A stretch of DNA of 64,000 bases from a virus. How positions within the stretch are numbered: position 1 is the stretch's first letter; every line of letters begins with the position of its first letter. Positions 1-38,716 of this stretch are shown in pieces. A program made the translations under genes and the position numbers. The stretch spans positions 28,056 through 92,055 of the IMG/VR virus record IMGVR_UViG_3300035698_019240, one strand, 5' to 3'. Below the pieces are notes generated by a model. The model had not been told where the DNA came from, made no database searches, and saw only the letters and a program-made list of their open reading frames with translations.

Positions 1-112
1 TCTTATTGATAAAATATCCGTTAACATGAATTCCGCTAAGGCCTTCGTCCCAAGGAAAAATTTCCTTTATCTTATCCAAACTCATTAGTTTTATCTTATC
101 TCCTGCTTTCAT
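1..112 (-). CDS. Partial small protein (MKAGDKIKLMSLDKIKEIF...), paralog of 330..635; runs off the window
   Basis: Manual translation; ATGA overlap with stop of 109..333. Confidence 0.7.
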   Translation of the reverse strand, partial: MKAGDKIKLMSLDKIKEIFPWDEGLSGIHVNGYFINK

Positions 113-333
113 ATCTCTATATCCTCAAACAATTCATCAACATCCATTATTGAGTCTTCTTTAGGTTTACAACCATCAAATTTTCGGTCTTCACCACCTA
201 TAGTTACAGTACAATCTATTGCACAATCATTTGTATATTTATGTTTACCTCTATGACTGCAATGCATCAATGGACAATTCCCTTCTATCCAACCATCACA
301 TTCCACAATTTCATGATATTCAATATCTCTCAT
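109..333 (-). CDS. Cys/His-rich small protein with conserved C-terminal tail
   Basis: Cys/His pattern; ends IMDVDELFEDIEI. Confidence 0.8.
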   Translation of the reverse strand: MRDIEYHEIVECDGWIEGNCPLMHCSHRGKHKYTNDCAIDCTVTIGGEDRKFDGCKPKEDSIMDVDELFEDIEI

Positions 334-635
334 ATGTCTATCTCCGAGAATAAGTCGTCTACATCCATTATGATTTCCTTATCTATCCACTTTTCACTAA
401 ATGCCCAAATACCCTCAGGACCTATTATATCAAAATCATAACCTCTCCCATTATTATTTTTCAATAAGTTGTTGATTCTCCATGACTTCCCGAACATATC
501 AAGCATAAAACCATTAATGTGTAGATTCCCAACATTAAAATTTCTACTATTAAGTATCTCTTTCAAACTGTATTGTAATTTTATTTGTCTAAGAGTTTTC
601 AGTTTTATCTTATCTCCTACTTTCATATCTTTCAT
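330..635 (-). CDS. Small protein with conserved C-terminal tail
   Basis: KVGDKIKL start; ends IIMDVDDLFSEIDI; body resembles 9049..9318. Confidence 0.8.
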   Translation of the reverse strand: MKDMKVGDKIKLKTLRQIKLQYSLKEILNSRNFNVGNLHINGFMLDMFGKSWRINNLLKNNNGRGYDFDIIGPEGIWAFSEKWIDKEIIMDVDDLFSEIDI

Positions 636-844
636 ATCTCTATATCCTCAAACAGTTTATCTACATCAATGATAGGACCATCATCTATTACTATCAATTC
701 TGACTCAGTGTATATAACCGTATTTGGTTGATAATCCCATCTAACATGTATAGGATAATGCAACTCATAGTCAACTATCTTAACAGTTCCATGCCTCTTA
801 AGGAGACCACTTTTTAACTTTACTCTATCATCGACTTTTATCAT
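632..844 (-). CDS. SH3/KOW-like small protein with conserved C-terminal tail
   Basis: KVDDRVKL...GTV...IHVRWD...ESEL; ends IIDVDKLFEDIEI. Confidence 0.8.
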   Translation of the reverse strand: MIKVDDRVKLKSGLLKRHGTVKIVDYELHYPIHVRWDYQPNTVIYTESELIVIDDGPIIDVDKLFEDIEI

Positions 845-1257
845 TATTCAATAGCCATGAGTACTTTTTTTACCAGGCTTCCATCTACTGTTCCTTTCAA
901 TTCTTTCATTATTGGTCCCATTGCTTTCATCTTATTATGAAATTTACTCAAGTCTACATTGGTCTTGATATACTCTTTTATGTCATCCTCGGATAGCAAA
1001 TTTTCTTCCGGCAAGTATCCTTCAACTATATCAAGATATGTAGAAGTTTTATATTTCTTAGCATCAAGTACCATCTTTTCGTTTTTCCTTAGACCTTTCA
1101 GGATGTATACCAATTCGGCATCTGTTACTACTTCACCTACCTTTTTGTTCAACCGTGGTACCTCACCAAGTATGACCCGTATAGCACTACTCCTCAATGG
1201 CGTCTCGGCCTTCATACTTTCTTTTAAGTCTTTTCGTAATCTTTCATATATAGTCAT
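844..1257 (-). CDS. GatB/YqeY domain protein
   Basis: DLKESMKA, YLPE..LSEDDI, MGPIMKELKGTVDG motifs typical of YqeY. Confidence 0.8.
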   Translation of the reverse strand: MTIYERLRKDLKESMKAETPLRSSAIRVILGEVPRLNKKVGEVVTDAELVYILKGLRKNEKMVLDAKKYKTSTYLDIVEGYLPEENLLSEDDIKEYIKTNVDLSKFHNKMKAMGPIMKELKGTVDGSLVKKVLMAIE

Positions 1258-1442
1258 TTACTAACTCCTTTCTTATTACAGTTTAATTGTTATAATTTCA
1301 CGATCCTCATCACTAGGTACCTCATGTTCAGCACACCATTCGTTGAACATACCTGTTGTTATATCAAATCCATCCTCCCAGTCTGTTACCTTTTTACAAA
1401 CAGTACAGTATTTTCTAAGTTGTTCATCATTGAAGTCCATAG

Positions 1443-1850
1443 TTATATCCTTTCTACAAAAAATGGTAAACAGAAATTGAATGTATGTTTACAGTCGGCA
1501 CACATTACATTTATTGACATTCCCCCTCTTGGTCCTCCACATATGTACTCACAACCACAATCAGGACAACACCTTTCTAATAGTATCCTTTTGAGTAGAG
1601 TGTCACTATCCATTTCAATTTTATCACATAAGGAGTCACATTCTTTCTCGCAGGGTTTACATGGGTATTTTACCTCAAGTATATCACCTCTAAGGGCTTC
1701 AGGAACTCTAACAAATCCCATCGACTTCCATCTTGGGTCTCCTGGCTGTATATCTTCATTAACCTTTTCTTTATTTTTAAGTATTGCTTCGACAAATACA
1801 AACACAAAAAATAATATCAAACCTATCAAACCTATTGTTGTCCATTCCAT
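1443..1850 (-). CDS. Membrane-anchored Cys-rich (Zn-ribbon) protein
   Basis: N-terminal TM; YPCKxC, CCPDCG, CxDCxH; paralog of 4444..4851. Confidence 0.7.
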   Translation of the reverse strand: MEWTTIGLIGLILFFVFVFVEAILKNKEKVNEDIQPGDPRWKSMGFVRVPEALRGDILEVKYPCKPCEKECDSLCDKIEMDSDTLLKRILLERCCPDCGCEYICGGPRGGMSINVMCADCKHTFNFCLPFFVERI

Positions 1851-2191
1851 TCCATTACTCTCCTTTATTCAATTTATTCTTAGCACGTTCATAGTTGTTC
1901 GTCCTATTAAGTAGTTCAGTATACTTATCCTTTTCTATACTATTGTAAAGTCCTAAAGCAATCAATATTAATACCATTAAAATATATTCCATTATCAGTT
2001 ACTCCTTTATTATATATTGTCTTTCACATTGATAACATTTCAAACCTTCAGGCAGTGTAACACCACAACTGGGACAATCAATATCATTTTCACTAATGAA
2101 GTGATCATTTTTCCTCAGGTTTTCAAGTCGTGTGATACCACCTATGCAATACTTTATCGTATCTAATATGTCTATCAAAAATCGTTTCATA

Positions 2192-2485
2192 TTATACCCT
2201 CGTATGACATTTATGTTCCCTACGTGCTTTGAAACTTCCCCTTAATTCCTCAACCAAAGACTCACACTCTTTACAAATGTATATTTCTATACCCTCTTCC
2301 TTCTTATCATACCATACAAATCGACTCTCTACCAGTTCACATTCCAATCGTTCCAGTTCACGTTCATAATTTTTGACTCGGTGCATTTGAGTCTTTGACA
2401 TCTGTTTCCTTTCTAAGATAATAATACCTTTAGAAATAAATACACCCAGTAAACAAAACACTATTGCAATTAAAATTATTTCCAT
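2192..2485 (-). CDS. Membrane-anchored Zn-finger-like protein
   Basis: N-terminal TM, YxCxxC...HxC; paralog of 2476..2790. Confidence 0.7.
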   Translation of the reverse strand: MEIILIAIVFCLLGVFISKGIIILERKQMSKTQMHRVKNYERELERLECELVESRFVWYDKKEEGIEIYICKECESLVEELRGSFKARREHKCHTRV

Positions 2486-2790
2486 TTTGTATCCTCATCT
2501 TCATCCTCTTCTCCATTATATTTTGCACATTCATGAATACTTCGTTGATACATGCTACCTATTTCCTCCTCAACCACTGTGCCACATACCAAACACATGT
2601 ATCGGTAATTACCCTTTTCATCTGTCCTAACAAAATGGAACATATTCTTTAACCGTTCACGTTCCAGCCGTGCCTTTATAGCTTCATAACTATCGGTTCG
2701 GGAATACAGTATCTTTCTCCACCTTTTTCTCTCCTTTTCGCTATAAACTATAATACATAAACATACAATTACAAACAATATCCATTCCAT
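2476..2790 (-). CDS. Membrane-anchored Zn-finger-like protein
   Basis: N-terminal TM, YMCLVCG...HEC. Confidence 0.7.
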   Translation of the reverse strand: MEWILFVIVCLCIIVYSEKERKRWRKILYSRTDSYEAIKARLERERLKNMFHFVRTDEKGNYRYMCLVCGTVVEEEIGSMYQRSIHECAKYNGEEDEDEDTKWK

Positions 2791-3006
2791 TATATTATCT
2801 CCTTTATCATTTAAGTCCTAACCGTAATACTATCCACCATACGATGAAAAATATTACAAAATATATCCATTCACTCATTGTCTATTCCCTTTATATTAGG
2901 TACATCACTCCTATCTTGATGGCTCCTATTAGCCACATGATTATCTTCACTACGCCTATTAGCCACGGGGCTATCAGGCATATAATACAACCAGGTACAT
3001 CCAGTT

Positions 3007-3261
3007 TTAATTTTTCTTCTGAAGGTTTTTTCCTTCATCCTCAACAGCCTTACTTTTGTATATTGGATGTCTCTGTCCACATGAAAGGCACATATATGTG
3101 TCCTTTTCAACGGCCTTACCCTTCTCTATCATACGAATTTTTAATATCATATCATACAATTCCTTATACTCTCTTACATGTTCTCCCTTATGACTTCTAT
3201 TATGATATATATCCTTCACCCATAGAAATACTAACACGATTACCAATACCATATACTCCAT
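3007..3261 (-). CDS. Membrane-anchored Zn-finger-like protein
   Basis: N-terminal TM, YMCLSCG..H. Confidence 0.65.
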   Translation of the reverse strand: MEYMVLVIVLVFLWVKDIYHNRSHKGEHVREYKELYDMILKIRMIEKGKAVEKDTYMCLSCGQRHPIYKSKAVEDEGKNLQKKN

Positions 3262-3533
3262 TATATCACATCCTTTATATACTTATCCGGCTCGTCAAAC
3301 GCCCACTCTGGTATGGTTATATTGTTGACCAATGTCCAAGCGTCATCCAGTCTAACACCACTCTTGTATAAATCAATGTGCCCTATCCATTTTTCATTCA
3401 ACACAAACTGGTCTGAATCAATCTTATACTTTTTACAGTAATACTTAACTATTATTTCGGCCGCCTTATTCATTTCCCATAAGGCATCTTTCCCTTTCCC
3501 TTGTGCTACCAGTAAATCTGTCACTAATCCCAT
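3261..3533 (-). CDS. Hypothetical protein
   Basis: Tightly packed ORF with GGAG SD. Confidence 0.6.
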   Translation of the reverse strand: MGLVTDLLVAQGKGKDALWEMNKAAEIIVKYYCKKYKIDSDQFVLNEKWIGHIDLYKSGVRLDDAWTLVNNITIPEWAFDEPDKYIKDVI

Positions 3534-3535
3534 TT

Positions 3536-3859
3536 TTATATCTCCTTTTTTCTTAAATGTTTATAGTAAGCTTTTATTAATTTATTTATTTTTTTCCATA
3601 CCGAATCAGGTCTTGGCATATTAACATATTCAAATGTAGGCGGTTTCTCCAAATACCTTTTCAATTCAAAGTACTTGCATTTACCATCTGAGTTTAGATC
3701 AGTACATTTCAATCTAACAATATTTCCAGTAATAGGACAGATGTTACTCTTATCATGCTTACACCTGTAACCAGATGCCCCAAATTCAACAGAAGGATTA
3801 TACAAACTATGTTTACATTCTTGACATATTATCATTTTATCTTTTGTTCTTTTACCCAT
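3536..3859 (-). CDS. Cys-rich hypothetical protein
   Basis: CxxCxH..C..C pattern; AGGA SD. Confidence 0.6.
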   Translation of the reverse strand: MGKRTKDKMIICQECKHSLYNPSVEFGASGYRCKHDKSNICPITGNIVRLKCTDLNSDGKCKYFELKRYLEKPPTFEYVNMPRPDSVWKKINKLIKAYYKHLRKKEI

Positions 3860-3896
3860 AATACATTTCCTTTACTGTTAAAGTTTTTATATACTT

Positions 3897-4184
3897 CTAC
3901 CATTTCCATCCGATAGTAATTTTATCGTACTGTTCAACCAAACCACCACTGTCCACTGGATGCCAACACATATGAGACATTTCAAAATACATACCCTGTT
4001 TGAAGATATCTACAGTTAATCCCAGGTCATATTTCACACTTGCTGGATGGAATCGTGTACTCTCACCCTCACCAACCGAGTCATCCATTAAGGTACTGAT
4101 ATTAGCCCATGGACGAAACATAAAATTCTTAGTATTAAACTTTCACCCTACCTCAATCTCCGCTATATACTCCGCCACATTCAT
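3897..4184 (-). pseudogene. Beta-strand-rich protein interrupted by an in-frame TGA at 4143-4145
   Basis: ATG at 4184 is ATGA-coupled to the upstream stop and in frame with 3897..4121: EIEVG*KFNTKNFMFRPW...TIGWKW. Confidence 0.5.
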
Positions 4185-4390
4185 ACTTTCAATTCTTTAA
4201 CTATCATCATACTTTCATATAACGGACACTTCTCTAATTTCTCCAGTGATATATTCTGATCCTCACCACACTCGTAAACACCTGCATCCGTATCGGCAGG
4301 GGTAAGCAACATTTCACATCCGTTTTCTTTACAATATTCTACATCCATTTTATATTCCTTTCTCTCATTTATGTATCCATTATAACACAC
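4181..4390 (-). CDS. Small Cys-containing early protein (probable start at MDVEY)
   Basis: First gene after the early promoter at 4379-4407. Confidence 0.6.
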   Translation of the reverse strand: MCYNGYINERKEYKMDVEYCKENGCEMLLTPADTDAGVYECGEDQNISLEKLEKCPLYESMMIVKELKV

Positions 4391-4407
4391 GATGACCTAT
4401 TTGTAAA
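4379..4407 (-). promoter_or_regulatory. Early sigma70-type promoter
   Basis: TTTACA-17-TATAAT with extended -10 TG. Confidence 0.8.
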
Positions 4408-4443
4408 TCCACCATTTTACACTGTCCTTTCAGTCACTTACTG

Positions 4444-4851
4444 CTACAGGCTCATCTTACTACACTTTAATCCTAAGAACATCCTCTCCACACGTGTAGG
4501 TTGTTCAAATCTGAAGCCATTAATATGAAAATAATGGCCGCAATCCTCACATTTCACATCTATTGTCCCTGGTCCACGACGCATCACAGGAACGAACAAT
4601 GACCCACAATCCGGACAGCACATGTGATTTGTTATCTTTTCCCTCAAGACATATTCATCCCTCTCCAGCAAGGAGCATAACTTTTCACACCCTGAATTGT
4701 ACATAAGACAACTCTTACATGGATATAACAAATCCTCCTTCATTTTCCGTTCATCCTTACATATATCCACCTTCAACTTTCTTATCATCCTCAACTTCTG
4801 AATGATCATCACTATCAATATCATTATTAAACTTATCGTAATTAATTCCAT
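4444..4851 (-). CDS. Membrane-anchored Cys-rich protein
   Basis: TM plus YPCKSC...CCPDCG...CEDCGH; paralog of 1443..1850. Confidence 0.7.
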   Translation of the reverse strand: MELITISLIMILIVMIIQKLRMIRKLKVDICKDERKMKEDLLYPCKSCLMYNSGCEKLCSLLERDEYVLREKITNHMCCPDCGSLFVPVMRRGPGTIDVKCEDCGHYFHINGFRFEQPTRVERMFLGLKCSKMSL

Positions 4852-5009
4852 ATCTCTATCTCCTTAAATAGTTCATCCACATCCATTATTGGTACTTCTT
4901 TAGGTATAAACATATCAAAAACAAAATCAGGAGTAGTCTTACATTCCTTACAGGGAGACAATCTCCAATTACGTCCTGAATAATAACATGTTGTACAATT
5001 CCTTTCCAT
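4842..5009 (-). CDS. 55-aa Cys-rich protein with conserved C-terminal tail (not in ORF track)
   Basis: Manual translation MERNCTTC...CKEC...[16 protein letters not shown]. Confidence 0.75.
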   Translation of the reverse strand: MERNCTTCYYSGRNWRLSPCKECKTTPDFVFDMFIPKEVPIMDVDELFKEIEIWN

Positions 5010-5147
5010 AATCCCTTACTTTCGTCTCCGTATACCTTTCTTATTTCTCTTATTCATATAACAATCCACAACTATCACTATCAAAGCTATACCCCACATC
5101 ACCAGGACAGCAACTCTTAGTTTTAGTATTATCGTAATTAATTCCAT

Positions 5148-5795
5148 TTAATTCACCAACCTTATGATAGGACCACACACATCCTTTGCTAAGTTACCAT
5201 AACTGATATCCTTACCGGCGGCATGTTTCCTTTTATGACATGGTACACACAAGCACTGTCCGTTCGGTGGGTCAAGAGCTAAATACTTCTTTCTCTTTAC
5301 AGGCTCTATATGGTGTACTTCCTCCGCCTGTCGTCCACACTCCTCACAGGTGGGATAATTCTTTTTATACTTCGCCATATTCCGTCGTCCAACTTCTTTC
5401 CTCCACGCCGCCCTTTCCGAACTTATGGTAACTACACCTATCCACTCTTCCGTCTCAACACCCAGTCTACTCCTCTCGCCCGCTTTCTCCAGGTAATCAA
5501 GACCTTTACCAAATACAGGACAGGAATGTTTACATCCATCACTGCAATAGAAATTATTACTCCCCGGCAGCCTCCCCTTTAAGACACCACTTCTATGTAG
5601 TACCTGATTCATCGTAGGTCGGAACACCTTCTCACACCCACTATAGTAACATCTAACATTCAGGACATCACTATCCTCAGGGTCCCGGAAACATTCATTA
5701 GCAGGATACAACTGTGGCTGATACAATTTATAACTCGGTAACTTATCACCATACTTCCATCCCATATCGTTATCTCCTCCACGGTAGGAAATCAC
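5148..5795 (-). CDS. HNH endonuclease with Cys-rich N-terminal domain
   Basis: CEECG...VHHI...NGQCLCVPCH; RDPED..LNVxCYYSGC domain shared with 5944 and 8028. Confidence 0.8.
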   Translation of the reverse strand: MISYRGGDNDMGWKYGDKLPSYKLYQPQLYPANECFRDPEDSDVLNVRCYYSGCEKVFRPTMNQVLHRSGVLKGRLPGSNNFYCSDGCKHSCPVFGKGLDYLEKAGERSRLGVETEEWIGVVTISSERAAWRKEVGRRNMAKYKKNYPTCEECGRQAEEVHHIEPVKRKKYLALDPPNGQCLCVPCHKRKHAAGKDISYGNLAKDVCGPIIRLVN

Positions 5796-5943
5796 AAATA
5801 CAAACCAACACTACATCCATAATAGTCACTAAGACCAACGCTATATTCATCACCATTTCCACTAACACATCAACCACTCTCACCAAGACCGTTATACAGT
5901 CCATCAATATATAAGCTATCACTTCAAGTACCGCCATCATACC

Positions 5944-6852
5944 CTACACCTTTCTTTTACATATTTTATTTGCTAACATTCCCGTACTACAGTCCTTATC
6001 TCCGGCAGGATGTCCTATTTTGTAGTGACACCTTTTACATAAGCACATACCGTTATTTGGATCCATTGCCTGTTCAGGATGTGTCTTAACCGGATGTATA
6101 TGGTGCACAACTTCTGCCGGCTCCTCACATTTCTCACAGGTAGGATGGAAATTATCGTATATCACTATGTTCCGTTCAATAACCTCAGTTCTCCATATGA
6201 CCCTCTCCGAAGCCGTGTATATAGTACCTTCCCATTCGTTATCTTCATCATGACCATTGTGTATCTTTATCAACGCTTCTTCCGCTCCCTTCACCGATTT
6301 ACCATATATAGGACACATATCCTTACAACCATCACTACAATAAAGATCACCACTTTTCCCACATGTTTTCATCGCATTAATCCTACGCCACACTTGACCT
6401 CTTGTAGGTCTGAACACCTTCCCACAACCACTATAGTAACATTTCACATTCAAAATATTACCATCCTCCGGGTCACGGGAACACTCATATCCAAGCAACT
6501 GTTCCGCATATAAATCATATCTCGGTATATCTCTTGTACCATACCCACCCTTCCAAGTAGGATTATTCACTCCACTAACTTTCCCCTTCGTCTCCTCAGT
6601 ATGTTTTTTTCCATACATAGGATGATTTTTTCCTCCACTCACAACACATTTATTATCACAATAATGAAATTTAGATTTACTACCTTTACTATAAAACATT
6701 TTTCCACCACAATTCCGACATATTCCTTCAAGATATAAATTAAAATCTATTTTACCACCCTTACCAACACCCTTTTTCCTCCATACTCCTTTCAATTTCA
6801 GGTGAGGTATCAAGATTTCTATACCAGTTTTATATTTCATTATTTTATCCAC
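5944..6852 (-). CDS. HNH homing-type endonuclease with NUMOD3-like motif
   Basis: GKKHTEETK, NNPTWKGG, CEKC...VHHI...NGMCLCKRCH. Confidence 0.85.
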   Translation of the reverse strand: MDKIMKYKTGIEILIPHLKLKGVWRKKGVGKGGKIDFNLYLEGICRNCGGKMFYSKGSKSKFHYCDNKCVVSGGKNHPMYGKKHTEETKGKVSGVNNPTWKGGYGTRDIPRYDLYAEQLLGYECSRDPEDGNILNVKCYYSGCGKVFRPTRGQVWRRINAMKTCGKSGDLYCSDGCKDMCPIYGKSVKGAEEALIKIHNGHDEDNEWEGTIYTASERVIWRTEVIERNIVIYDNFHPTCEKCEEPAEVVHHIHPVKTHPEQAMDPNNGMCLCKRCHYKIGHPAGDKDCSTGMLANKICKRKV

Positions 6853-6875
6853 TTTCCTTTCACTTTTACACTATA

Positions 6876-6904
6876 AGGATAACACATTTTTTACCCATTG
6901 TAAA
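6876..6904 (-). promoter_or_regulatory. Early promoter for left arm
   Basis: TTTACA-17-TATCCT with TG extension. Confidence 0.65.
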
Positions 6905-6911
6905 TCTATTA

Positions 6912-7950
6912 CATCTAAAATTTTGTGCGGACGGAAGTTGAATGTCCTAAGGTTTAACAGGTGTATTTGTAGTGTAGTCAAACGCACCTTCATATCCGTC
7001 ATCGCAAAAATTAGAAAATTTAGTGGCCTAAAGGTTTGGAGCAAAGGAGCACGCTCTCCGGTATAATCACAACCGCCTCAGACGCACGGGATTTCTTTTT
7101 CCTGTTCCAATCTTGCTCCAATCTCCCGTTAGTCACTATCACATCACGGCTACTGGGTTACTGTTCTCCTTTCTCACATCCCATACCACGGGATACACAT
7201 TACTCATGCACTTATTGATCAGGAGCACAGAGGCCTCGATCCTCTACACACCCAATACCATATTCCCGCAGGATAACATTTTTCCTGTGGGAAATGAGGA
7301 AATGTGTGGGATATTGAGATAATAAGACCCACGGCGCACAGGACTCGTTGGATATCGTTGGGATGGTGCGCGGTCTTCCACATGTGAAAGGAGGTCAATG
7401 GGTGTCAGAGTGTATGATCACTCGGACTCGCGTCAGCATATACAGAATCACGATGAAATCTGCTCCAGAATCCGGGAGGGGCCCGGAATTCAATCCTCAC
7501 TACATCTTGCGCAAACCTCTCAAAAACCACTAAACCGCCCTTTACTCACCCATATAATATAAGCAAAAACACACATTTTCCTGCTCCCGGAATCCTGGAG
7601 GGGAGGATTTGCGGTAAAGCCATGGTGTCAAAAGTTCCGACGATCTTTACCTGTCTCACTATCCGTCATTTTGCGCAGTTTATACTTTTCAATCCGGATT
7701 CCGGGAAAATCCACGATTCCCATCGGAGAATGCGTTTTTAGTGTCCAGACCCCTGGATATCTATAGTACATAACTTCTTTAATACTTGGAAAGTATATAA
7801 ATATTGCTTTTCCTTTATATTTGCTTATTTTTCACTGGATTCACGAAATCCTTAGATTAACACAAATGTCCTGATACTCTTTTCCTACTTTTCAATGGTA
7901 TTTGCGTAAATTGTCAAAATAGTCCCGGGCCAGCTCAATTTCAAAACGCC
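6912..7950 (+). ncRNA. Putative large structured non-coding element (RNA or folded ssDNA), family unknown
   Basis: No credible ORF; GC-richer than flanks; more than 10 hand-found stems whose G-T pairs work only on the + strand. Confidence 0.45.
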
Positions 7951-7974
7951 GGAAATGAAGGTTACAATATTATG

Positions 7975-8003
7975 TTTACATTTTATCAAAAATAATGTAT
8001 AAT
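7975..8003 (+). promoter_or_regulatory. Early promoter for right arm
   Basis: TTTACA-17-TATAAT. Confidence 0.8.
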
Positions 8004-8027
8004 AGGTATATGAAATAAAGGAATAAA

Positions 8028-8765
8028 GTGCAAATGAAATATAGTGGGAAAAAATCTAAACCATTTACTTTCTTACATAGTGGTGTCAAGCTTTTAAAAA
8101 ACACACCTGCAAAAATAAGAGAAAGTAAAAATAAAAGTACTAAGAATAGGTGCTATGGAGAAAATCATCCTGGATGGAAAGGTGGTTATAGTATAAAAGG
8201 TATACCAACATATGATACTTACGCTCCTAAACTCTTTGCGGATGAGTGTTCCCGTGACCCGGAGGATGGTAATATCTTGAATGTGAAATGTTACTATAGT
8301 GGTTGTAAAGAATGTTTTAGGCCAAGTATAGGACAAGTCAGTGCACGACTAACTGTTATAAAAATAGGAAATGATGGTAGAAATTTCTACTGCTCGGAAG
8401 AGTGTAAAAAATCTTGTTCTGTGTATCACATGAGAGTTGAATGGATTATGAACCAGAATGATGGTAGAAATTTTTCAGATAATGAGGATAGATGGTATAG
8501 AGACACCCAACCAGAATTACGGGCCATGTGCTTGGAAAGAGATGGTTATATTTGTCAAACATGTGGAAAGCATGAGAGTGATCTTGATGTTTCATTACAC
8601 TGTCATCATAGAGAAGGTGTATTTTGGGAACCATTGATGTCTGCTGATTTAGATATGGTTTTGACCGAGTGTGAAACATGTCATTATGATATACATAGAA
8701 AAGAAGGATGTAGGTCAGTGGATATGCAATGTCCATTTCTTGGAGCAGAAGGAGCGGATATATAG
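8028..8765 (+). CDS. HNH endonuclease, paralog of 5148/5944
   Basis: NHPGWKGG; ERDGYICQTCG..LHCHH...LTECETCH; shared CSRDPEDGNILNVKCYYSGC. Confidence 0.85.
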   Translation: MQMKYSGKKSKPFTFLHSGVKLLKNTPAKIRESKNKSTKNRCYGENHPGWKGGYSIKGIPTYDTYAPKLFADECSRDPEDGNILNVKCYYSGCKECFRPSIGQVSARLTVIKIGNDGRNFYCSEECKKSCSVYHMRVEWIMNQNDGRNFSDNEDRWYRDTQPELRAMCLERDGYICQTCGKHESDLDVSLHCHHREGVFWEPLMSADLDMVLTECETCHYDIHRKEGCRSVDMQCPFLGAEGADI

Positions 8766-8839
8766 GTGTGAATAATGGGGGTCCGTTAGGAATCGAAACA
8801 ACGATGTCCGAGGAATCGGAAAAGGAAAGGGCGTGAGTT

Positions 8840-9052
8840 ATGAAAAAAATAACAGTATGGAATCGGTTAGGAGAAAATGGTTGGAATCACAATCATATTG
8901 AGGACGGATGGGTTGAAGGATCTAAACCAAAGGCGAAAAAAGCTGAATTCAAAAGGCAGATTAGTGGTTGGAAAAATAATTTGTGGAGAAAGTCATATGA
9001 GTATTTGACTGTTGATAATAAAGTAATATGGTGGAATGGTGAAAATAAATGA
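8840..9052 (+). CDS. Trp-rich hypothetical protein
   Basis: ORF in early operon. Confidence 0.55.
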   Translation: MKKITVWNRLGENGWNHNHIEDGWVEGSKPKAKKAEFKRQISGWKNNLWRKSYEYLTVDNKVIWWNGENK

Positions 9053-9318
9053 AGAGAAAGATCATGAAAAAAGGAAGCATTATAGTATTAAAAACTTTGG
9101 AAGAATTAAAGAAGGGAAAAACATGTGTTGCTGATAGAGGTGGTATTTCAATAGATGGAAAATATATACGTCCGGATATGTACAACATGTTTGGGAAAAA
9201 GCATGTGATAGAAGACATATATTATGTATGGAATGGTAGTATTATTGAAATAAAACATGAACGAAGTAATTGGTATATAAGAGAAGAATGGATTGAAAAG
9301 GTATTGAAAGGAAAATAG
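9049..9318 (+). CDS. Hypothetical protein related to 330..635 but lacking the acidic tail
   Basis: LKTL, MFGK and W..xExWI motifs shared. Confidence 0.65.
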   Translation: MKRKIMKKGSIIVLKTLEELKKGKTCVADRGGISIDGKYIRPDMYNMFGKKHVIEDIYYVWNGSIIEIKHERSNWYIREEWIEKVLKGK

Positions 9319-9496
9319 TATGGAAAAGTATTCAAGAAAGTGGAAGTATGTTAGTAATGACAATGGTATAATTACCAAGAGATTGAAGGTTCCTAACGGT
9401 TGGATAGTTAAGTCCTGGATGGATGGTAGTCCTGATTCGTTGAATATGTTATTTGTTCCAGAAGATCAGGCACATTACTGGGAGTTAGAAAAATAA

Positions 9497-9748
9497 ATGA
9501 GTGCCATTCAAATAGGAGATAGAGTAATATTAACAACTGATAGGTACGATAGTAGTGCTATGAATCCTCGTTATGATAAAACAGGAATTAAAGGAAATGT
9601 AACGAGGATAGTATATATGGACAGAAAAACAAGGATATATGTTAAATGGGATACTGGAAGGAATAATGGATATGATGTGTCGGACTTAGAAGTTGCTGAT
9701 AACATCATCATTGATGTGGATGACCTGTTCTCGGAGATTGATATATGA
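9497..9748 (+). CDS. SH3-like protein with conserved C-terminal tail
   Basis: IGDRV..NP..G.V..YVKWDTG.NN.Y..SDL; IIDVDDLFSEIDI. Confidence 0.85.
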   Translation: MSAIQIGDRVILTTDRYDSSAMNPRYDKTGIKGNVTRIVYMDRKTRIYVKWDTGRNNGYDVSDLEVADNIIIDVDDLFSEIDI

Positions 9749-9972
9749 TAGTTGGAGATACAGTAAGGTTAACGACCGACAGGTATGGTAATTGTGATGT
9801 AAATCCTTGTTATGATAAAACAGGAGTTGAAGGAGAAGTAACTGATATAGAAGAAGGTACTATATATGTTAAATGGGATAATGGAAGGAATAATGTATAT
9901 GTTAAGTCGGACTTAGGAGTTATTCTTCCTATTATAGATGTGGACGACCTGTTCTCGGAGATTGAGATATGA
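9745..9972 (+). CDS. SH3-like protein with conserved C-terminal tail
   Basis: Close paralog of 9497; IIDVDDLFSEIEI. Confidence 0.85.
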   Translation: MIVGDTVRLTTDRYGNCDVNPCYDKTGVEGEVTDIEEGTIYVKWDNGRNNVYVKSDLGVILPIIDVDDLFSEIEI

Positions 9973-10211
9973 AGTTTAAAGTTGGAGATAGAGTAAAACT
10001 AATAACAAAAAGACATGGTGTAGGTTATTCTAATCCTTATTGGCCAAAATATGGAATAGAAGGTGTTATAACGGAAACATGGCAGGACATAACTTTTTAT
10101 GTCAAATGGGATAATACGGGGAAAAATAGTTATAGTTCTAATGATTTGGAATTAGTAGATGTTAAACCTCTTATAGATGTGGATGAACTGTTTGAAGGGA
10201 TAGAGATATGA
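9969..10211 (+). CDS. SH3-like protein with conserved C-terminal tail
   Basis: KVGDRVKL..NPYW..VKWDN; LIDVDELFEGIEI. Confidence 0.85.
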   Translation: MKFKVGDRVKLITKRHGVGYSNPYWPKYGIEGVITETWQDITFYVKWDNTGKNSYSSNDLELVDVKPLIDVDELFEGIEI

Positions 10212-10453
10212 AAGTCGGAGATAGAGTAAGGTTAACAAAGGATCGTTTTACATTGTGTGAGGAAAATCCAAAATGGCCTGAGTATGATGTTCTTGGTGTT
10301 ATTGCTTATATCGGAAATTCAAATATGGAAATGAATATAAGGGTAGATTGGGATAATGGACATAATAATATTTATGATAACTTTGATTTAAGAATTATAG
10401 AAGATAAACCTATTATAGATGTAGATGAACTATTTAAGGAGATAGAGATATGA
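10208..10453 (+). CDS. SH3-like protein with conserved C-terminal tail
   Basis: KVGDRV..NPKW..VDWDNG.NN.Y..DL; [13 protein letters not shown]. Confidence 0.85.
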   Translation: MKVGDRVRLTKDRFTLCEENPKWPEYDVLGVIAYIGNSNMEMNIRVDWDNGHNNIYDNFDLRIIEDKPIIDVDELFKEIEI

Positions 10454-11562
10454 TAGTTGGAATTTTAAAAGAGATTATGGATAGTGAAAATCGTGTTTCA
10501 ATGACTCCGGCAGGAGTCGAGGTAATTAAAAAGAATGGTCATACTGTTCTAATAGAAAAGGATGCCGGTAAAAAAAGTGGTTTTGAAAACAGTGAATATG
10601 TTAAGGCAGGAGGCAACATTGTATTAAAACCTGATGATATCTATAAATGCGCTGATATGGTAATGCATGTTAAAGAACCTCTACCTGTTGAATATGGATA
10701 TTTCAGAAAAGATCAGATTATCTTTACATTTTTACACTTGGCTGCAAAAAAAGAACTCACTAATACCCTTATAAGAAAACGTTCTGTTGCTATTGCATAT
10801 GAAACCATTCAAAAAAAGGATGGCTCTTTACCATTGCTTATACCCATGAGTGAGGTGGCTGGAAGGATGTCTATTCAGGCGGGAGCGAAGTGTCTTGAAA
10901 TGACCTATGGTGGTCAGGGCATACTACTCGGTGGAGTTCCCGGTGTACAGCCCGGCATGGTTGTAATTTTAGGCGGTGGTGTAGCCGGTGTAAATGCGGC
11001 GAAGATAGCATCAGGTTTTGGTGCAAGGGTTTACCTATTGGATATTAATCAGGAACGCCTACGATATTTGAGTGATGTTATGCCGAAAAATTGTTTTCCT
11101 ATAATGTCAAGTCCTTCAAAAATTCGTGAGTTATTAAAGGAAGCCGATCTTGTTGTAGGTGCTGTTCTAATACCAGGAGCCAAGGCCCCTAAACTTGTAA
11201 CAAGAGAAATATTAAAGACCATGAAAAAAGGTTCCGTTATAGTTGATATTGCTATAGACCAGGGAGGGTGTTTTGAAACATCCAAACCCACTACACATTC
11301 AAACCCGACTTACATTGTAGACGGTGTTATTCATTATTGTGTTGCAAATATGCCCGGAGCTGTGGCAAAAACTTCAACCCTTGCCCTTACTAATGTTACA
11401 TTACCTTATGCTGTTGATATAGCAAATAAGGGATGGGAAAAAGCGGCCAGGGAAAATCCTGAAATCATGATGGGATTGAATGTGGTAAAAGGAAAGGTAA
11501 CATGTAAAGGTGTGGCAGATGCTTTTAAACTTGAATATGCTCCTATTGAAAGTTGGGGATAG
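10450..11562 (+). CDS. ald: Alanine dehydrogenase
   Basis: [36 protein letters not shown] Rossmann motif, [22 protein letters not shown]. Confidence 0.97.
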
Positions 11563-11740
11563 AGTATATAACCAGAATCATGAGGGAATCGTTGTACGGA
11601 TTGATTATAATTTACGTCATCCAATATATGTTGAATGGGATGGTTCTTGTTTTCATTATTGCTACTATGCTAACGAATTGGGATTGTTGATTGAAAACAT
11701 CATAGATGTTGATGAGTTGTTTGAGGATATAGAGATATGA
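11546..11740 (+). CDS. SH3-like protein with conserved tail; start displaced by ald insertion (TTG)
   Basis: TTG AAA GTT GGG GAT AGA GTA = (M)KVGDRV overlapping the ald stop; IIDVDELFEDIEI. Confidence 0.7.
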   Translation: MKVGDRVYNQNHEGIVVRIDYNLRHPIYVEWDGSCFHYCYYANELGLLIENIIDVDELFEDIEI

Positions 11741-12009
11741 ATGCAATAACTGTTGAAATATTGATGAGTATATTTGGGGTTCTTACTTCTTTTCAAATAA
11801 TACCTCAATGTGTTAGGATACATCGTAGAAGAAAAAGTGACGATCTTAGCCTTTGGACTATGTATATTAGTATAATACAACAGGTTTTATGGTTAGGATA
11901 TGCTATTTGGAAACCTGTTATATGTCTAGTTGTAACAGAAGGTGTTTGGTTAACACTTTTAATAGTCTTGTTATGTTTTATATTTAAATATAGAGGAAAA
12001 AGAGATTGA
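11737..12009 (+). CDS. PQ-loop / SemiSWEET-family 3-TM transporter subunit
   Basis: IIPQ..RI.R.KSDDLS, LWLGYA; three hydrophobic helices in 90 aa. Confidence 0.85.
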   Translation: MNAITVEILMSIFGVLTSFQIIPQCVRIHRRRKSDDLSLWTMYISIIQQVLWLGYAIWKPVICLVVTEGVWLTLLIVLLCFIFKYRGKRD

Positions 12010-12012
12010 TAT

Positions 12013-12285
12013 ATGAGTACATTTATTGTTGAACTATTTATGACTATATTAGGCACAATTGGTGCTTGTCAAATAATACCTCAATGTGTTAGGATACATC
12101 GTAGAGAAAAAAGTGATGATATTAGCTTTTGGACTATTGGTATTAATATAATGTCCCAGTCAGTGTGGTTAGTGTATTCCTTTTGGAAATTTGTACCATG
12201 TATGATTATATCCGGTTCCGTTTGGTTAACACTTTTACTGATAATGTTAGGATTGGTAGTGAAGCATAGAGGGGAAAATAAATGA
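12013..12285 (+). CDS. PQ-loop / SemiSWEET-family subunit (tandem paralog)
   Basis: IIPQCVRIHRREKSDDIS, VWLVYS. Confidence 0.85.
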   Translation: MSTFIVELFMTILGTIGACQIIPQCVRIHRREKSDDISFWTIGINIMSQSVWLVYSFWKFVPCMIISGSVWLTLLLIMLGLVVKHRGENK

Positions 12286-12530
12286 AAAAATGGAAAGTAG
12301 GAGATAGGGTAGTACTGAATAACAACATTTATGGTGATAGTCCTAGTAACCCTTTTATAGACCAAACAGAAGGTACAATTAGAGAGGTTGATGATCCTTC
12401 TTTTTATGGTCAAAATATAGTAGTGGACTGGTTGAATGGTAGTCATAATTGTTATTATTCTAGTGATTTAAAGGAAGTTGAAGAAAATATAATAGATGTT
12501 GATGAACTATTTTCGGAGATAGATATATGA
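12282..12530 (+). CDS. SH3-like protein with conserved C-terminal tail
   Basis: KVGDRV..SNP..VDWLNG.HN.Y..SDL; IIDVDELFSEIDI. Confidence 0.85.
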   Translation: MKKWKVGDRVVLNNNIYGDSPSNPFIDQTEGTIREVDDPSFYGQNIVVDWLNGSHNCYYSSDLKEVEENIIDVDELFSEIDI

Positions 12531-12742
12531 AGTTAAAAATTGGAAACAGAGTGGCATGGTATGGAGATCAAAGTTTTACTCGTAAAGGAACAGTAAAGAA
12601 TATATCAAATATTTCCAAGTTTCCTTATTTAATACTATGGGATGATGGAAGTCGTGGATGGTACAGTGAATCATTTATAGTATTAATGGATGATGATAAA
12701 ATTATGGATGTTGAAGAATTATTTAAGGAGATTGAGATATGA
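12527..12742 (+). CDS. SH3-like protein with conserved C-terminal tail
   Basis: KIGNRV..GTV..WDDG; [13 protein letters not shown]. Confidence 0.85.
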   Translation: MKLKIGNRVAWYGDQSFTRKGTVKNISNISKFPYLILWDDGSRGWYSESFIVLMDDDKIMDVEELFKEIEI

Positions 12743-12990
12743 AGTTAAAAATTGGAGATGAGGTAAAATTAATAACCAAAAAGCATGGTATTAGTAATAA
12801 TAATCCTTACTGGCCCGATTATAAAAAAATAGGAACTATTGATCGTATACATAATACAGGGGGTCTGAATATTAGAGTTGTGTGGGAATTAGGAGGTATG
12901 TGTCATAATGTTTATAGTAGTTCAGATTTAGAATTGGTAGATGAACCTATTATGGATGTTGAAGAATTATTTGGAGATATAGATATATAA
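12739..12990 (+). CDS. SH3-like protein with conserved C-terminal tail
   Basis: KIGDEVKL..NPYW..HNVYSSSDL; IMDVEELFGDIDI. Confidence 0.85.
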   Translation: MKLKIGDEVKLITKKHGISNNNPYWPDYKKIGTIDRIHNTGGLNIRVVWELGGMCHNVYSSSDLELVDEPIMDVEELFGDIDI

Positions 12991-13223
12991 TGCGGAAAGT
13001 AGGAGATAGAGTAAAATTAACAAGTATAGTTCACGGTATATCTGATAGTAATCCATATTTTCTAAAATACAAAATCTTGGGAACCGTTTATAAAGTTTTA
13101 GGTTTAGAATGGACTTGTCCATTTAAAGTTAAATGGGATAATGGTATAAAGAATGGATATAATTCATGGGATCTAGAAGACTCGGAATATATTATTGGTC
13201 TTGATGAGTTGTTTGAATTATGA
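12990..13223 (+). CDS. SH3-like protein with degenerate tail
   Basis: KVGDRVKL..VKWDNG; IIGLDELFEL. Confidence 0.8.
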   Translation: MRKVGDRVKLTSIVHGISDSNPYFLKYKILGTVYKVLGLEWTCPFKVKWDNGIKNGYNSWDLEDSEYIIGLDELFEL

Positions 13224-13393
13224 TGATTTGTCCCATGGCTGATAAATGTATATGTTATACATGTACTCATAGAATACCTCATAAACACTGTGACGGTCTA
13301 TCATGTTTAAGACATGTTGATAATAAATGGCCTCATGTTTGTATACCACTTATCATTGATATAGATGATTTATTTTCTGATGTTGAAGTATAA
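13220..13393 (+). CDS. 57-aa Cys/His-rich protein with conserved tail (not in ORF track)
   Basis: Manual translation MMICPMADKC..CTHRIPHKHC...IIDIDDLFSDVEV*. Confidence 0.75.
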   Translation: MMICPMADKCICYTCTHRIPHKHCDGLSCLRHVDNKWPHVCIPLIIDIDDLFSDVEV

Positions 13394-13417
13394 ACCATAT
13401 TTGAAATAAATGCTTTA

Positions 13418-13446
13418 TTTACATTTTGTTTATTTTATGTTAAACT
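13418..13446 (+). promoter_or_regulatory. Early promoter
   Basis: TTTACA-17-TAAACT with TG extension. Confidence 0.7.
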
Positions 13447-13472
13447 AGATATAGAATTTAAAGGAGAATATA

Positions 13473-13685
13473 ATGGGTGAAAAGTTATTAGATAATGGAG
13501 ATCAATATTTACCAGAGCAGTATATTAAATACTGTGACAATTTACAGGAAGACAGTGAGGTCACATGGGACGATTTTTTTGATCATGTTAATCTTTCAAG
13601 TGATAAGAGGTCAGACTTTCTTATAGCTGCTATATATAAACAAGCACTGGAGACATTAAGTGTGGAAGTAGACTATCAAATATAA
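13473..13685 (+). CDS. Acidic hypothetical protein
   Basis: AAGGAG SD; follows early promoter. Confidence 0.65.
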   Translation: MGEKLLDNGDQYLPEQYIKYCDNLQEDSEVTWDDFFDHVNLSSDKRSDFLIAAIYKQALETLSVEVDYQI

Positions 13686-13921
13686 TGAGAAAAGGATTAA
13701 ATATAAATTGTATTCATTTTAAAGGTCCTTCAAGTTGTCCACGAAAACCTAAAAGACTTGGATTTTTAATGGCTAAATGTCATTTGGCTAACGATCTTAC
13801 AAAAACTTGTGCTATTCAGGAAAAATACCCAAGACCATCCCATCCACCTCCACCTCCACCACCAAAGAGAGTTATCAGTGAAGATGTAGGTTGGAAATAT
13901 ATAAAGAGAAGGAAAGGATAA
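13685..13921 (+). CDS. Cys-rich protein with poly-Pro tract
   Basis: Four Cys; HPPPPPPPK. Confidence 0.6.
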   Translation: MRKGLNINCIHFKGPSSCPRKPKRLGFLMAKCHLANDLTKTCAIQEKYPRPSHPPPPPPPKRVISEDVGWKYIKRRKG

Positions 13922-14092
13922 ATGTGGATAGATGATAAAAGTGATGGCTGTGTTTACGATACGGTAGACTGTGACCATAATTGTCTTGGATGTAACCATG
14001 GCTCTATGCAATGTACATCATGTGGACTTATTGTATATTATCCCGATAATAAATGTGACTGTGGTCATGTTTTGGAAGACAGAGATTTCTAA

Positions 14093-14299
14093 ATGGAAGA
14101 TTATGTAATATGTGATGCGTATGTAATTTGTGATTGGCATGGTAAATGTCATCATAAAAAACCTCATATTAAAGATTCTATGTGTGATATCAATGGATGT
14201 AATTGTGTAGATGGAAATGTTAGTTGTTCTCCTGTAAACACTGTTGATATATTGGATAAAAATGAAGTGGATGAATGGTTCAGAGAAATAGAATTGTAA
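14093..14299 (+). CDS. Cys/His-rich protein with divergent conserved tail
   Basis: CD..C.H.KPH..C..C..C.P as in 109..333; ends EVDEWFREIEL. Confidence 0.75.
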   Translation: MEDYVICDAYVICDWHGKCHHKKPHIKDSMCDINGCNCVDGNVSCSPVNTVDILDKNEVDEWFREIEL

Positions 14300-14328
14300 T
14301 TTACATAATTACATTTATATGATATAAT
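14300..14328 (+). promoter_or_regulatory. Early promoter
   Basis: TTTACA-17-TATAAT. Confidence 0.8.
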
Positions 14329-14354
14329 AAAAGGTGATAAAAAAAGGAGATTAA

Positions 14355-15287
14355 ATGAAGACAGCTGAAATTTTTAATAAGGCAATAGCAACAGGAATGG
14401 AGTTTGATCCTAGAGGTTTTAAAGAAGTAAGGAAGATTCTTGTAGATACAAAAAAACAATGGGATAAACTTAAAGAAAAGGATAAGGAATATTTTGATAC
14501 AGATAAATTATTGAATCCATATCCTGATTCAAGAATTCTATTTAACTTAGAAGATGGTGTTTCAAATGTGAAGAAGATACTTGTTGGTATTGATCTTGAA
14601 GGTCCTGAATTACTTCTCGCAAGTCATATAGGTGTTGATTTGGCTATAGCTCATCATCCAGAAGGTATGGGTTATGCAGGGCTTCCTGATGTTATGAGTA
14701 TGCAAGCCGATGTTCATCATCAATTAGGTGTTCCTATCAGTACCGCAACAGGACTTATACGGCATAGACAAAACGAGGTAAGAAAAAGTATAATGGGGTC
14801 AAACTTTTCAAGACCTATTGATTTTGCAAGAATTCTAGGAATACCATATATTTGTCTACACACTCCAGCAGATAATATGGTTCAGGCAAATGTACAGAGT
14901 ACGATTGATAAAGCTTCTCCTGAAACCCTTGGAGATATAATTGATATTCTTCTTGAGTATCCTGAATATAAAAAAGGTAAGAAAATGGGAGAGGGTCCTG
15001 TTATTCATGTTGGTTCAAAATCTAATAAAGCCGGTAAAGTATTTGTTGAATTCACAGGAGGTACAAGTGGAAACAAAAACATTTATCAGAGGTTGTCTTA
15101 TGCAGGTGTTGATACAATAGTTGGAATGCATATGGGTACTGAACATGAAAAAGAAGTTAAAAAATATAACATGAATGTTATTATTGCAGGACATTATTCA
15201 AGTGATTCAATTGGTATTACAAAACTTCTTGAGCAGATTTTACCAAAAGATGTTGAGATAATAAAATGTTCAGGTTACATAAGATAA
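14355..15287 (+). CDS. NIF3 (NGG1p-interacting factor / DUF34) family metal-binding protein
   Basis: KKILVGID, AHHP, HTPADN, AGHYSSD. Confidence 0.8.
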   Translation: MKTAEIFNKAIATGMEFDPRGFKEVRKILVDTKKQWDKLKEKDKEYFDTDKLLNPYPDSRILFNLEDGVSNVKKILVGIDLEGPELLLASHIGVDLAIAHHPEGMGYAGLPDVMSMQADVHHQLGVPISTATGLIRHRQNEVRKSIMGSNFSRPIDFARILGIPYICLHTPADNMVQANVQSTIDKASPETLGDIIDILLEYPEYKKGKKMGEGPVIHVGSKSNKAGKVFVEFTGGTSGNKNIYQRLSYAGVDTIVGMHMGTEHEKEVKKYNMNVIIAGHYSSDSIGITKLLEQILPKDVEIIKCSGYIR

Positions 15288-15288
15288 G

Positions 15289-16716
15289 ATGTCAAGGAGA
15301 AGGAAGAAACAAAAGCGTAATAAAGTAAGATGTGATAATCACGAGCTTTGTTTAATAAAAGATTGTTTTCACAGATTTTTTCATAAAGGATTTAAAGGCT
15401 GTAAAGAAAAGTGTCCATATTATGGTGGTGGATATAAATGTATGACTGAGGAGGAAATGAATGGGAAAGTATGATGATAAAAAAATGACATATAGAAGTG
15501 AGGATCTTAGTAATACTCGTAAAATAAAGGTACAGAATATACTATGTGACATTGCAAGTGAGATAACGGAACTCAAAGAAGTGGTGGATAGTTTTTCGAA
15601 AGCATGTGAACAACCACGACCAAAGCGTGAGAGTTGGTTTAAAAGATTAATAAAATGGGGTGAAAGATAATGGATATTGAAAGAAAAATAGAATTGGAAA
15701 ATGTTAACACCGCAAAGCAGTTAGGAATGATAAGTACCGAAAAGGCTATTAAAATGAGAAAGAAAATTTATAAAAAAATATTTGAAGATGATATAAAAGA
15801 AGGAGAGAAAAATGGTAGATGATTTTGAAGACTTAGAAACTATTCTAAGTAGAAACATGGAAGAGGAACTTAAAGATGCCATGGATGCTGGAATAATTGA
15901 TATTAAAATCAATGGTAAAAAGGCTACAGATGTTGATATAGCTGTTGATGAGGATACAGGAGCAATCGTTATTACTAACGGTGATGGTGATACAACTGAA
16001 ATTATAATTAATGGAACAGGAGAGCATATAATATAATCATGAGTGTTAATAAAACTCTTTGTAGTAAATGCGATAATTTATTTTTTGTACGATTACAAGT
16101 ACAATGGAGTAATGGTGGTAAAGGTAAGGTATCAGGATCATGTTTATTACAACCAAATTTTTTTGAGAAAACTAAAAAAATTAAGGGTGTAATGTTCGAT
16201 GGAAATGGATTACCAGTTATATTAAAATGTGGTAAGTTTAGAATTAAAAAAGGAGTAGTAAATGTTTAATGATATAATAGATGGTTCAACGGGACCATGG
16301 AAAAGAAATGGTAATAATGAATGGTATCATATTGATAATATGATTATTAGATTATGTAAGAGATCATTGGTGATATATGACCTGTACTATAATGTTAATA
16401 AAACAAAAGTAGTTATAAGTAAAGTGATTGTAGGAAGAACGGAAGACGAGGCTAAGGATAAAGCGGAAAGTTATTTAAAGAAAAGAAAAATAATATAAGA
16501 AAGGAAAATACAATGGATTGGAAGTTAGATACAGAATTAATAAAAATGTTTCTTGAAGAATGTGGAACAGATGGTGATAAATGGGAAAGTAAGTTCAATA
16601 AAATTCCCAATGAAGAAAGACAAATAAGTTTTGATTTTATATGTCCTGTAGAGAGGAAAAAAATAAATCTCAAATTTGGTATAACCGTTAACAATGTTAC
16701 ACTTACGGAGGTTTAA
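15289..16716 (+). CDS. Run of small hypothetical early genes (15289, 15461, 15812, 16039, 16262, 16513)
   Basis: Contiguous + strand ORFs with SDs/overlaps; no recognisable family. Confidence 0.55.
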
Positions 16717-17026
16717 ATGTTTTACATTCACGTAAAGAATTTTCCACTATTAACACTTGATGAAATAAAAGAACAGATAAATATGAGAATAAATGGACTC
16801 AAGAATCAAAGAGGTACAGGTATACCAAGAAAAGATGTACTGATTTCTGAAATTACAACTTTAAAAAAATTATGGAGGAAAAAGAAATGACAACTATACT
16901 TATTATACTTATTATAATTACTATAGGTTCATCTATACACTTTTACTATAAAGGACTAAAAAGGGGATATGATGACGGATGGAAAGACGCTGGTGGTGAT
17001 AATATTCCAGAAGAGGAAAAGAATTA

Positions 17027-31429: not shown

Positions 31430-31513
31430 TTACATCTCCTCATATTAAGTTCAAAGCATAAAAAAGCCTTCTATTATCCTTATTTAGAACAAGTAGAAGG
31501 CTTTTTACCTAAT
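31430..31513. repeat. Copy 2 of ~85-bp leader repeat; terminator-like hairpin after SpoVR
   Basis: AAAAAGCCTTCTA...TAGAAGGCTTTTT. Confidence 0.85.
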
Positions 31514-35254: not shown

Positions 35255-35283
35255 ATTATAACACATTACTAACACAAAGTAAA
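35255..35283 (-). promoter_or_regulatory. Early promoter for Zn-ribbon-yeaH-spoVR unit
   Basis: TTTACT-17-TATAAT with TG extension. Confidence 0.75.
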
Positions 35284-35286
35284 CGC

Positions 35287-35325
35287 AAAAAAAAGGTGCG
35301 GCCTATAAAAGGCCGCACCTTTTTT
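35287..35325. terminator. Intrinsic (bidirectional-type) terminator after prkA
   Basis: A8-GGTGCGGCCT-ATAAA-AGGCCGCACC-T6. Confidence 0.9.
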
Positions 35326-35341
35326 GTTGAATTATGGAAAA

Positions 35342-38647: not shown

Positions 38648-38659
38648 CTAATTTTCCGC

Positions 38660-38695: not shown

Positions 38696-38716
38696 CTAAT
38701 TATATTAAATTATCAA

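Follow-up and report, generated by a model that had tools for sequence, protein, structure and literature searches.

The junction between the two early gene arms of an uncultured phage is occupied by a GC-rich island devoid of genes, and the left ~400 nt of this island may encode, on the + strand, an orphan structured RNA or a few stable RNAs clustered together. We advance this reading tentatively. The locus has no coding capacity, stands out as a GC island, folds on the + strand in excess of shuffled sequence by means of G-U pairs and is absent from the known RNA families. Transcription itself, together with the strand, ends, processing and any function of a product, is an inference.

The phage and its relatives

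The DNA analysed here (the window) is the right 64 kb of the 92-kb IMG/VR contig IMGVR_UViG_3300035698_019240, which is estimated to be ~47% complete and has a G+C content of 32.7%. At least eight salt-lake metagenome runs, all of them DNA runs, carry near-identical sequence; the copies in public runs lie on low-coverage contigs, are identical to the window and show no sequence variation. The tail sheath protein is 56-57% identical to those of two uncultured phages, G1 (204 kb) and G2 (171 kb), and in GenBank it best matches T4-type myoviruses of Vibrio, Pelagibacter, Methylophilales, cyanobacteria and enterobacteria. Judged by these GenBank matches, the phage is a distant, uncultured member of the T4-like group. 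No closer phage relative was found in searches with five proteins, drawn from the HNH genes, alanine dehydrogenase, a 137-aa neighbour gene and the tail sheath; the best tail sheath match in these searches was 67% identical and came from short contigs.

Small genes arranged in two divergent arms fill the first part of the window (1-17000), with promoters of a single type, TTTACA-17-TATAAT. G1 and G2 do not share this early region as a whole; the sole orthologue is that of window 844-1257, which in G1 adjoins a tRNA array.

Three other features of these genomes were recorded. The alanine dehydrogenase gene of the window (10450-11562) has a cluster of 92%-identical relatives on short NCBI and JGI contigs. 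Its closest named relatives are found in Desulfobacterota (72-75% identity), and a search of genome contigs returned only bacterial genes, at 71% identity or less; these relatives may hint at the source of the gene or the lineage of the host. The hexamer TCCGGA occurs at 10 sites in the contig of the window and at none in G1 (204 kb) and G2 (171 kb). By our own estimate ~15 sites would be expected in G1, and the absence suggests restriction-site avoidance, in the relatives only. Outside the window, the minus strand of contig positions 2-5368 contains an open-ended ORF of 1789 aa with tandem repeats of 126, 138, 258 and 396 nt, all of them multiples of 3. It probably encodes a repetitive fibre or adhesin-like protein that is cut by the contig end.

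Layout and composition of the locus

The genes, promoters and repeats that define the locus are as follows (window coordinates):

5148-5795, - strand: HNH gene, 215 aa (Pfam HNH, 5e-8; PHROG HNH families), outside the element
5944-6852, - strand: HNH gene, 302 aa, with NUMOD3 and HNH domains (Pfam and PHROG), first gene of the left early arm
6424-6488 and 8242-8306, no strand: inverted repeat of 65 nt, 98% identical, within the 302-aa and 245-aa HNH genes and bracketing the whole element
6876-6904, - strand: left-arm early promoter, TTTACA-17-TATCCT after TG, firing away from the element
7761-8027, + strand: AT-rich spacer with the right-arm promoter (7975-8003, TTTACA-17-TATAAT)
7940-7968, + strand: weaker promoter in the AT-rich spacer
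8028-8765, + strand: HNH gene, 245 aa (PHROG HNH families), first gene of the right early arm

Between two outward-facing early promoters, the left of which resembles the other early promoters of the window, lies a gene-free stretch of ~1.1 kb (6853-8027). Its core (~6920-7760) is a discrete GC island: G+C is 0.41-0.505 in 200-nt windows over 6900-7799, against 0.327 for the contig, and the flanking edges are AT-rich on both sides (0.29-0.35). An earlier note on this DNA, made from the sequence alone, had placed the element between divergent early arms, and the core does sit between promoters that fire outward from 6904-6876 (-) and 7975-8003 (+). Neither a sigma-70-type promoter nor an intrinsic terminator was found for the core on either strand; the author of the same note, too, saw no clear + strand promoter. 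Since the core is upstream of both flanking early promoters, read-through from them cannot supply a core transcript. The element also marks the switch point of gene orientation and a local minimum of the cumulative GC skew. The skew is uninformative on replication, because it tracks gene orientation and the contig represents only ~47% of the genome.

Coding capacity

The description of the element as free of ORFs was borne out: none of the frames and codes tested gave a credible ORF in 6853-8027. Stop-to-stop frames reach at most 96 aa, and ten frames of the element gave no Pfam match. Longer frames do open under alternative codes (TGA=W, TAG=Q), but the peptides are junk-like and were rejected. 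A pseudogene was likewise rejected, as tblastn with all ORFs of three related phage genomes (this phage, G1 and G2) and with the HNH family produced no alignment.

One stretch of the right half has a ribosome-binding signal:

7386-7562, + strand: Shine-Dalgarno match GAAAGGAGGT (7386-7395, perfect over 10 nt) followed by small ORFs

An ATG 3 nt past the match opens an ORF of 54 aa (7398-7562) and a GTG 7 nt past it one of 44 aa (7402-7533). AAGGAGG has only four copies in the window, and two of the other three precede real genes. No true homologue of these 44-54 aa ORFs was found by an exhaustive HMMER search of 1.8 billion representatives or in a word-indexed collection; the HMMER matches to their peptides were repetitive long proteins only.

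Folding statistics and strand bias

The folding of the island was compared with that of shuffled sequence. An unconstrained fold of the whole 869 nt gave z -2.45 on the + strand and -0.46 on the minus strand (20 shuffles). With the pair span limited to at most 150 nt and 80 dinucleotide shuffles, 6905-7800 gave -3.5 on + and -2.0 on minus. The signal is confined to the left half (6905-7320), with z -5.8 on + and -2.7 on minus, against -0.4 and 0.0 for the right half (7321-7800). In a background of 64 grid windows of 416 nt, folded on both strands, the mean z was ~-0.5 (sd ~1.2) and the minimum about -3.4; none of the 128 values reached -4. Single z values are noisy, as one control window gave -5.8 in an earlier, smaller run and -3.4 in the full grid. 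Arbitrary 150-nt tiles of the element average ~-0.9 on +, and the grid window 7001-7416 has a z of -2.1. The claim that the element is extensively base-paired thus holds for its left 415 nt (6905-7320), which fold beyond shuffles and with a + strand bias, and fails for the right half (7321-7800), where there is no excess.

The strand bias has a simple source. If G-U pairs are disallowed, z is similar for both strands of the left half (-3.1 and -3.7), indicating true inverted-repeat content at the DNA level. Permitting them improves z to -5.5 on + and worsens it to -2.3 on minus. The + strand bias of left-half folding therefore comes from G-U pairs. The earlier note had concluded from recurrent G-T mismatches that the + strand folds; for the left half this stands, the strand difference being gone once G-U is forbidden. 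The case for the + strand rests on the comparison with shuffles, since the absolute energies of the second and third domains (D2 and D3, below) are no better on + than on minus.

Stem-closed domains

All of the stems listed in the earlier note are present where it had placed them, in the sequence as well as in the folds. They belong to the following structures:

6914-7016, + strand: domain D1, 35 pairs, a long closing stem that forks into two hairpins, MFE -31.1 kcal/mol
7019-7140, + strand: domain D2, a closing stem (7021-31/7129-38) and a perfect 9-bp stem (7036-44/7113-21) around a multiloop
7172-7320, + strand: domain D3, which includes an 11-bp hairpin (7263-7293)
7321-7760, no strand: GC-rich right half, folding no better than shuffles
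7741-7760, + strand: short hairpin at the right edge of the GC island, z -4.0 on + and -1.2 on minus, without a U tail

D1 has a z of -5.0 on + and -4.0 on minus (200 shuffles), and its centroid structure equals the MFE structure. The corresponding values are -3.0 and -2.2 for D2 and -3.5 and -2.6 for D3. An RNALfold scan of the whole window with SVM z-scores returned 163 loci at z <= -3. D1 (-4.2 on +, -3.2 on minus) is mid-table among them and D2 (-3.2, on + only) is ordinary; a locus within D3, 7235-7319 (-6.2 on +, -3.7 on minus), is among the ten best of the window. By both z measures, which are independent, + is the better strand for each of the three domains. What sets the left half apart is the combination of three adjacent stem-closed domains and not the uniqueness of any one hairpin.

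The strongest hairpins of the window (RNALfold z -6.5 to -8.3) are at 38656-38761, 16961-17064, 51386-51471, 30314-30385, 35277-35365 and 31453-31510. They are mostly at or near gene boundaries and are probably terminators or processing sites; the best of them, at -7 to -8, are intergenic and terminator-like.

Motifs of the right half

The right half is distinguished by short motifs. All four copies of AWTCCGGG in the 92-kb contig are found here (7469, 7482, 7586 and 7698), within 237 bp and in both orientations, and they sit in TCCGGA-type quasi-palindromes at 7464-7489, 7585-7599 and 7692-7706. The repeats of this half are irregularly spaced (122, 107 and 51 bp). As significant repeats, AWTCCGGG and TTTTCCTG were rejected: when all k-mers are compared with shuffles, the repeat statistics are not significant (39/400 and 90/400).

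Search for RNA families and homologues

Rfam 15 at gathering thresholds had no match anywhere in the window, and permissive searching of 6700-8100 yielded two chance-level matches only (E 5.6 and 7.8). The models included GOLLD, ROOL, HEARO/omega RNA, group I and II introns, 6S, RNase P, tmRNA and riboswitches; the element, which the earlier note had suspected of being undescribed, matches no known Rfam family. ARAGORN and the Rfam tRNA model detected no tRNA or tmRNA anywhere in the contig, window included. Relaxed ARAGORN runs found nothing at 85% thresholds without introns, and noise only at 70%.

The element appears to be an orphan. It has no match among GenBank phages and plasmids, none in IMG/VR by exact hairpin pattern, no homologue in the JGI metagenome collections and no match in 78 loci carrying the same HNH family. 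BLAST and nhmmer found no match in G1 and G2. There is no paralogue in its own contig, and a single-sequence covariance model of D1 detected nothing in 516 kb of related DNA. In G1 and G2, GC-rich ORF-poor stretches are tRNA arrays or unrelated sequence and are not at junctions of divergent arms; tRNA arrays are among the GC-richer ORF-poor stretches of G1.

Two regions of G1 (130790-131984 and 136848-138153) are ORF-poor over more than 1 kb inside the tRNA array, without a tRNA or Rfam match. Dissimilar to the element and to G2, they are further candidates for uncharacterised RNAs.

Flanking HNH genes and an inverted repeat

The three HNH genes are paralogues that bracket the element; compared with the 245-aa copy, the 215-aa protein is 31% identical and the 302-aa protein 40%. 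The nearest homologues of the 245-aa protein elsewhere are at most 45% identical. Two of the three genes are GC-richer than the phage. Genes of this family are common in large uncultured phages and occur there in multiple copies; we regard them as the same kind of gene as the free-standing mob genes of T4.

In one Logan contig, 6455 (minus) is joined to 8276 (plus) across the inverted repeat. Inversion of the 1.75 kb between the two repeat arms, a segment that contains the element and both promoters, would produce such a joint. Either the segment really inverts, or the joint arose during assembly at a 34-nt exact repeat. If real, inversion would exchange the N- and C-terminal halves between the two HNH nucleases in frame.

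Comparison with known systems

In T4, free-standing homing endonuclease genes occupy intergenic regions, with segB in the tRNA cluster (PMC2988022). The locus described here resembles the T4 tRNA and stable-RNA cluster in being a GC-richer non-coding island of a T4-like phage, flanked by free-standing endonuclease genes and made of consecutive units with paired 5' and 3' ends; in its relative G1, the only conserved neighbour gene abuts a tRNA array. Unlike the T4 cluster, the element contains no tRNA at relaxed thresholds, its units are 100-150 nt long and are not cloverleaves, it has no upstream promoter, and the endonucleases are HNH (Mob-like), not GIY-YIG.

The Staphylococcus myovirus vB_SauM-515A1 (Kayvirus) produces two highly transcribed, uncharacterised RNAs of 525-570 nt, lncRNA1 and lncRNA2 (PMC7698491). 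They are likewise large uncharacterised non-coding regions of a large myovirus and demonstrate that abundant expression of long non-coding RNA is possible in such a phage. They differ from the element in lying beside tRNA genes, in having identified promoters and RNA-seq support, and in belonging to another phage lineage; the two share no sequence similarity. With GOLLD and ROOL, which are often phage-borne, the element shares its size range (0.4-0.9 kb), phage context, multi-domain fold and a G+C content above the surroundings. However, their Rfam models have no match to it even at E values up to 10, it has no adjacent tRNA genes, and it bears no sign of conservation or of an ornate covarying structure.

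Iteron-type phage origins such as lambda ori and T4 oriE form another comparison. The element is like them in being non-coding, with short palindromic repeats beside an AT-rich tract at a point of divergent transcription. It is unlike them in that its repeats are few, irregular and statistically weak, its core is GC-rich and 800 bp long, and no initiator gene was identified.

Interpretation of the element

If the GC-rich core specifies a non-coding RNA, the left part (6914-7320) would be transcribed into + strand RNA. This would be a single structured molecule of at least 400 nt, or else a precursor that is cut into three stem-closed stable RNAs of 100-150 nt, in the way that T4-type phages process their tRNA and stable-RNA clusters. 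The right 450 nt would then be an unstructured tail or spacer of the RNA, or regulatory DNA. By analogy with other phage-borne large RNAs, the product would act during infection as a stable RNA and not as an mRNA leader. The earlier suggestion of an undescribed large non-coding RNA or a single-stranded DNA structure is plausible for the left 415 nt, where G-U-driven + strand folding is found without any Rfam family, and is not supported by the right half, which has no excess structure; left-half folding with a G-U bias fits either an undescribed RNA or a single-stranded + strand structure.

A structured RNA is consistent with the lack of an ORF, protein family or pseudogene trace in any frame and with a GC island that has AT-rich edges in a contig of 32.7% G+C, such islands in AT-rich genomes being typical of structured RNA genes. 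It is also consistent with the left-half z of -5.5 to -5.8 on +, against -2.3 to -2.7 on minus, when 0 of 128 grid strands fall below -4, and with the preference of D1-D3 for + in two z measures. The strand difference vanishes without G-U, as expected if selection has acted on the pairing of one strand and not just on duplex DNA. The T4-like affiliation of the phage, the precedent of long RNAs in a large myovirus and the position of the G1 orthologue of 844-1257 beside a tRNA array point in the same direction. Against it, the core lacks a sigma-70-type promoter or terminator and is upstream of both flanking promoters, and its right half has no excess structure. The signal is modest on arbitrary grids (~-0.9 for 150-nt tiles, -2.1 for 7001-7416), many other loci of the phage have equally strong local hairpins, D2 and D3 gain nothing in absolute energy on +, and no homologue was found, hence no covariation.

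The same locus could act as DNA, as a replication origin or regulatory region between the early arms, which we consider rather unlikely. The inverted repeats and TCCGGA-type palindromes would be sites of protein binding or extrusion, AT-rich 7761-8027 an unwinding or promoter region, and any single-strand folding would take place in DNA and not in RNA. The location at the gene-orientation switch and at a local minimum of cumulative GC skew, upstream of both promoters, would suit such a function, as would the AT-rich flanks, the excess of Watson-Crick-only pairing on both strands (z -3.1 and -3.7) and the confinement of all four contig copies of AWTCCGGG, in both orientations, to 237 bp. Yet the skew just follows gene orientation in a contig that is ~47% of the genome, and the repeats are irregular (122, 107 and 51 bp) and not significant against shuffles over all k-mers. 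A GC-rich core of 800 bp would be unusual for an origin, no initiator gene was identified nearby, and sites in duplex DNA leave the G-U (G-T) asymmetry unexplained. Another doubtful possibility is that the island is inert, a piece of foreign non-coding or decayed sequence left by homing-endonuclease traffic and kept as harmless between two promoters, its hairpins being incidental. Three paralogous free-standing HNH genes bracket it, two of them GC-richer than the phage; the phage has other recently acquired GC-richer DNA, such as the alanine dehydrogenase gene with its relatives in Desulfobacterota; and conservation of the early region does not extend to the nearest relatives, which lack a counterpart of the element, itself without relatives. 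But foreign fragments are usually coding, and here no frame gives a protein signal. Functionless sequence in a phage of 33% G+C should drift towards AT, the island edges are at 29-35% G+C, and the aggregate + strand folding excess with its G-U bias would be unexpected for junk. Least of all do we favour one or more small protein genes, for instance the 44-54 aa ORF behind GAAAGGAGGT at 7386-7395, with the core as their mRNA, an explanation we regard as highly improbable. A Shine-Dalgarno match of 10 nt is rare in the window and marks real genes elsewhere, and the GTG has the ideal 7-nt spacing. The peptides nevertheless have no true homologue in 1.8 billion representatives or the word-indexed collection and no Pfam match, they look random in composition, and their codon composition is unlike that of phage genes; such a gene would explain less than 20% of the element and would have no promoter.

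The structured RNA that we tentatively favour could, in a bolder form, represent a new class of large phage RNA. Such a + strand RNA of ~400-850 nt would be made at the hub of early transcription from a non-canonical promoter, would act early as a decoy, scaffold, replication primer or R-loop former, and would lie in a segment made invertible by recombination between HNH paralogues; we think this unlikely in its entirety. For now there is one orphan sequence, from a phage that is uncultured, and its value is that of a candidate and not of an established finding. To our knowledge, only a few large structured RNAs are phage-borne (GOLLD, ROOL and the Kayvirus lncRNAs), and a function is known for almost none of them. 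If the RNA is real, it would add a further, unrelated large phage RNA and offer a tractable case at the centre of an early-gene region, and it might tie RNA structure to the control of early transcription or replication.
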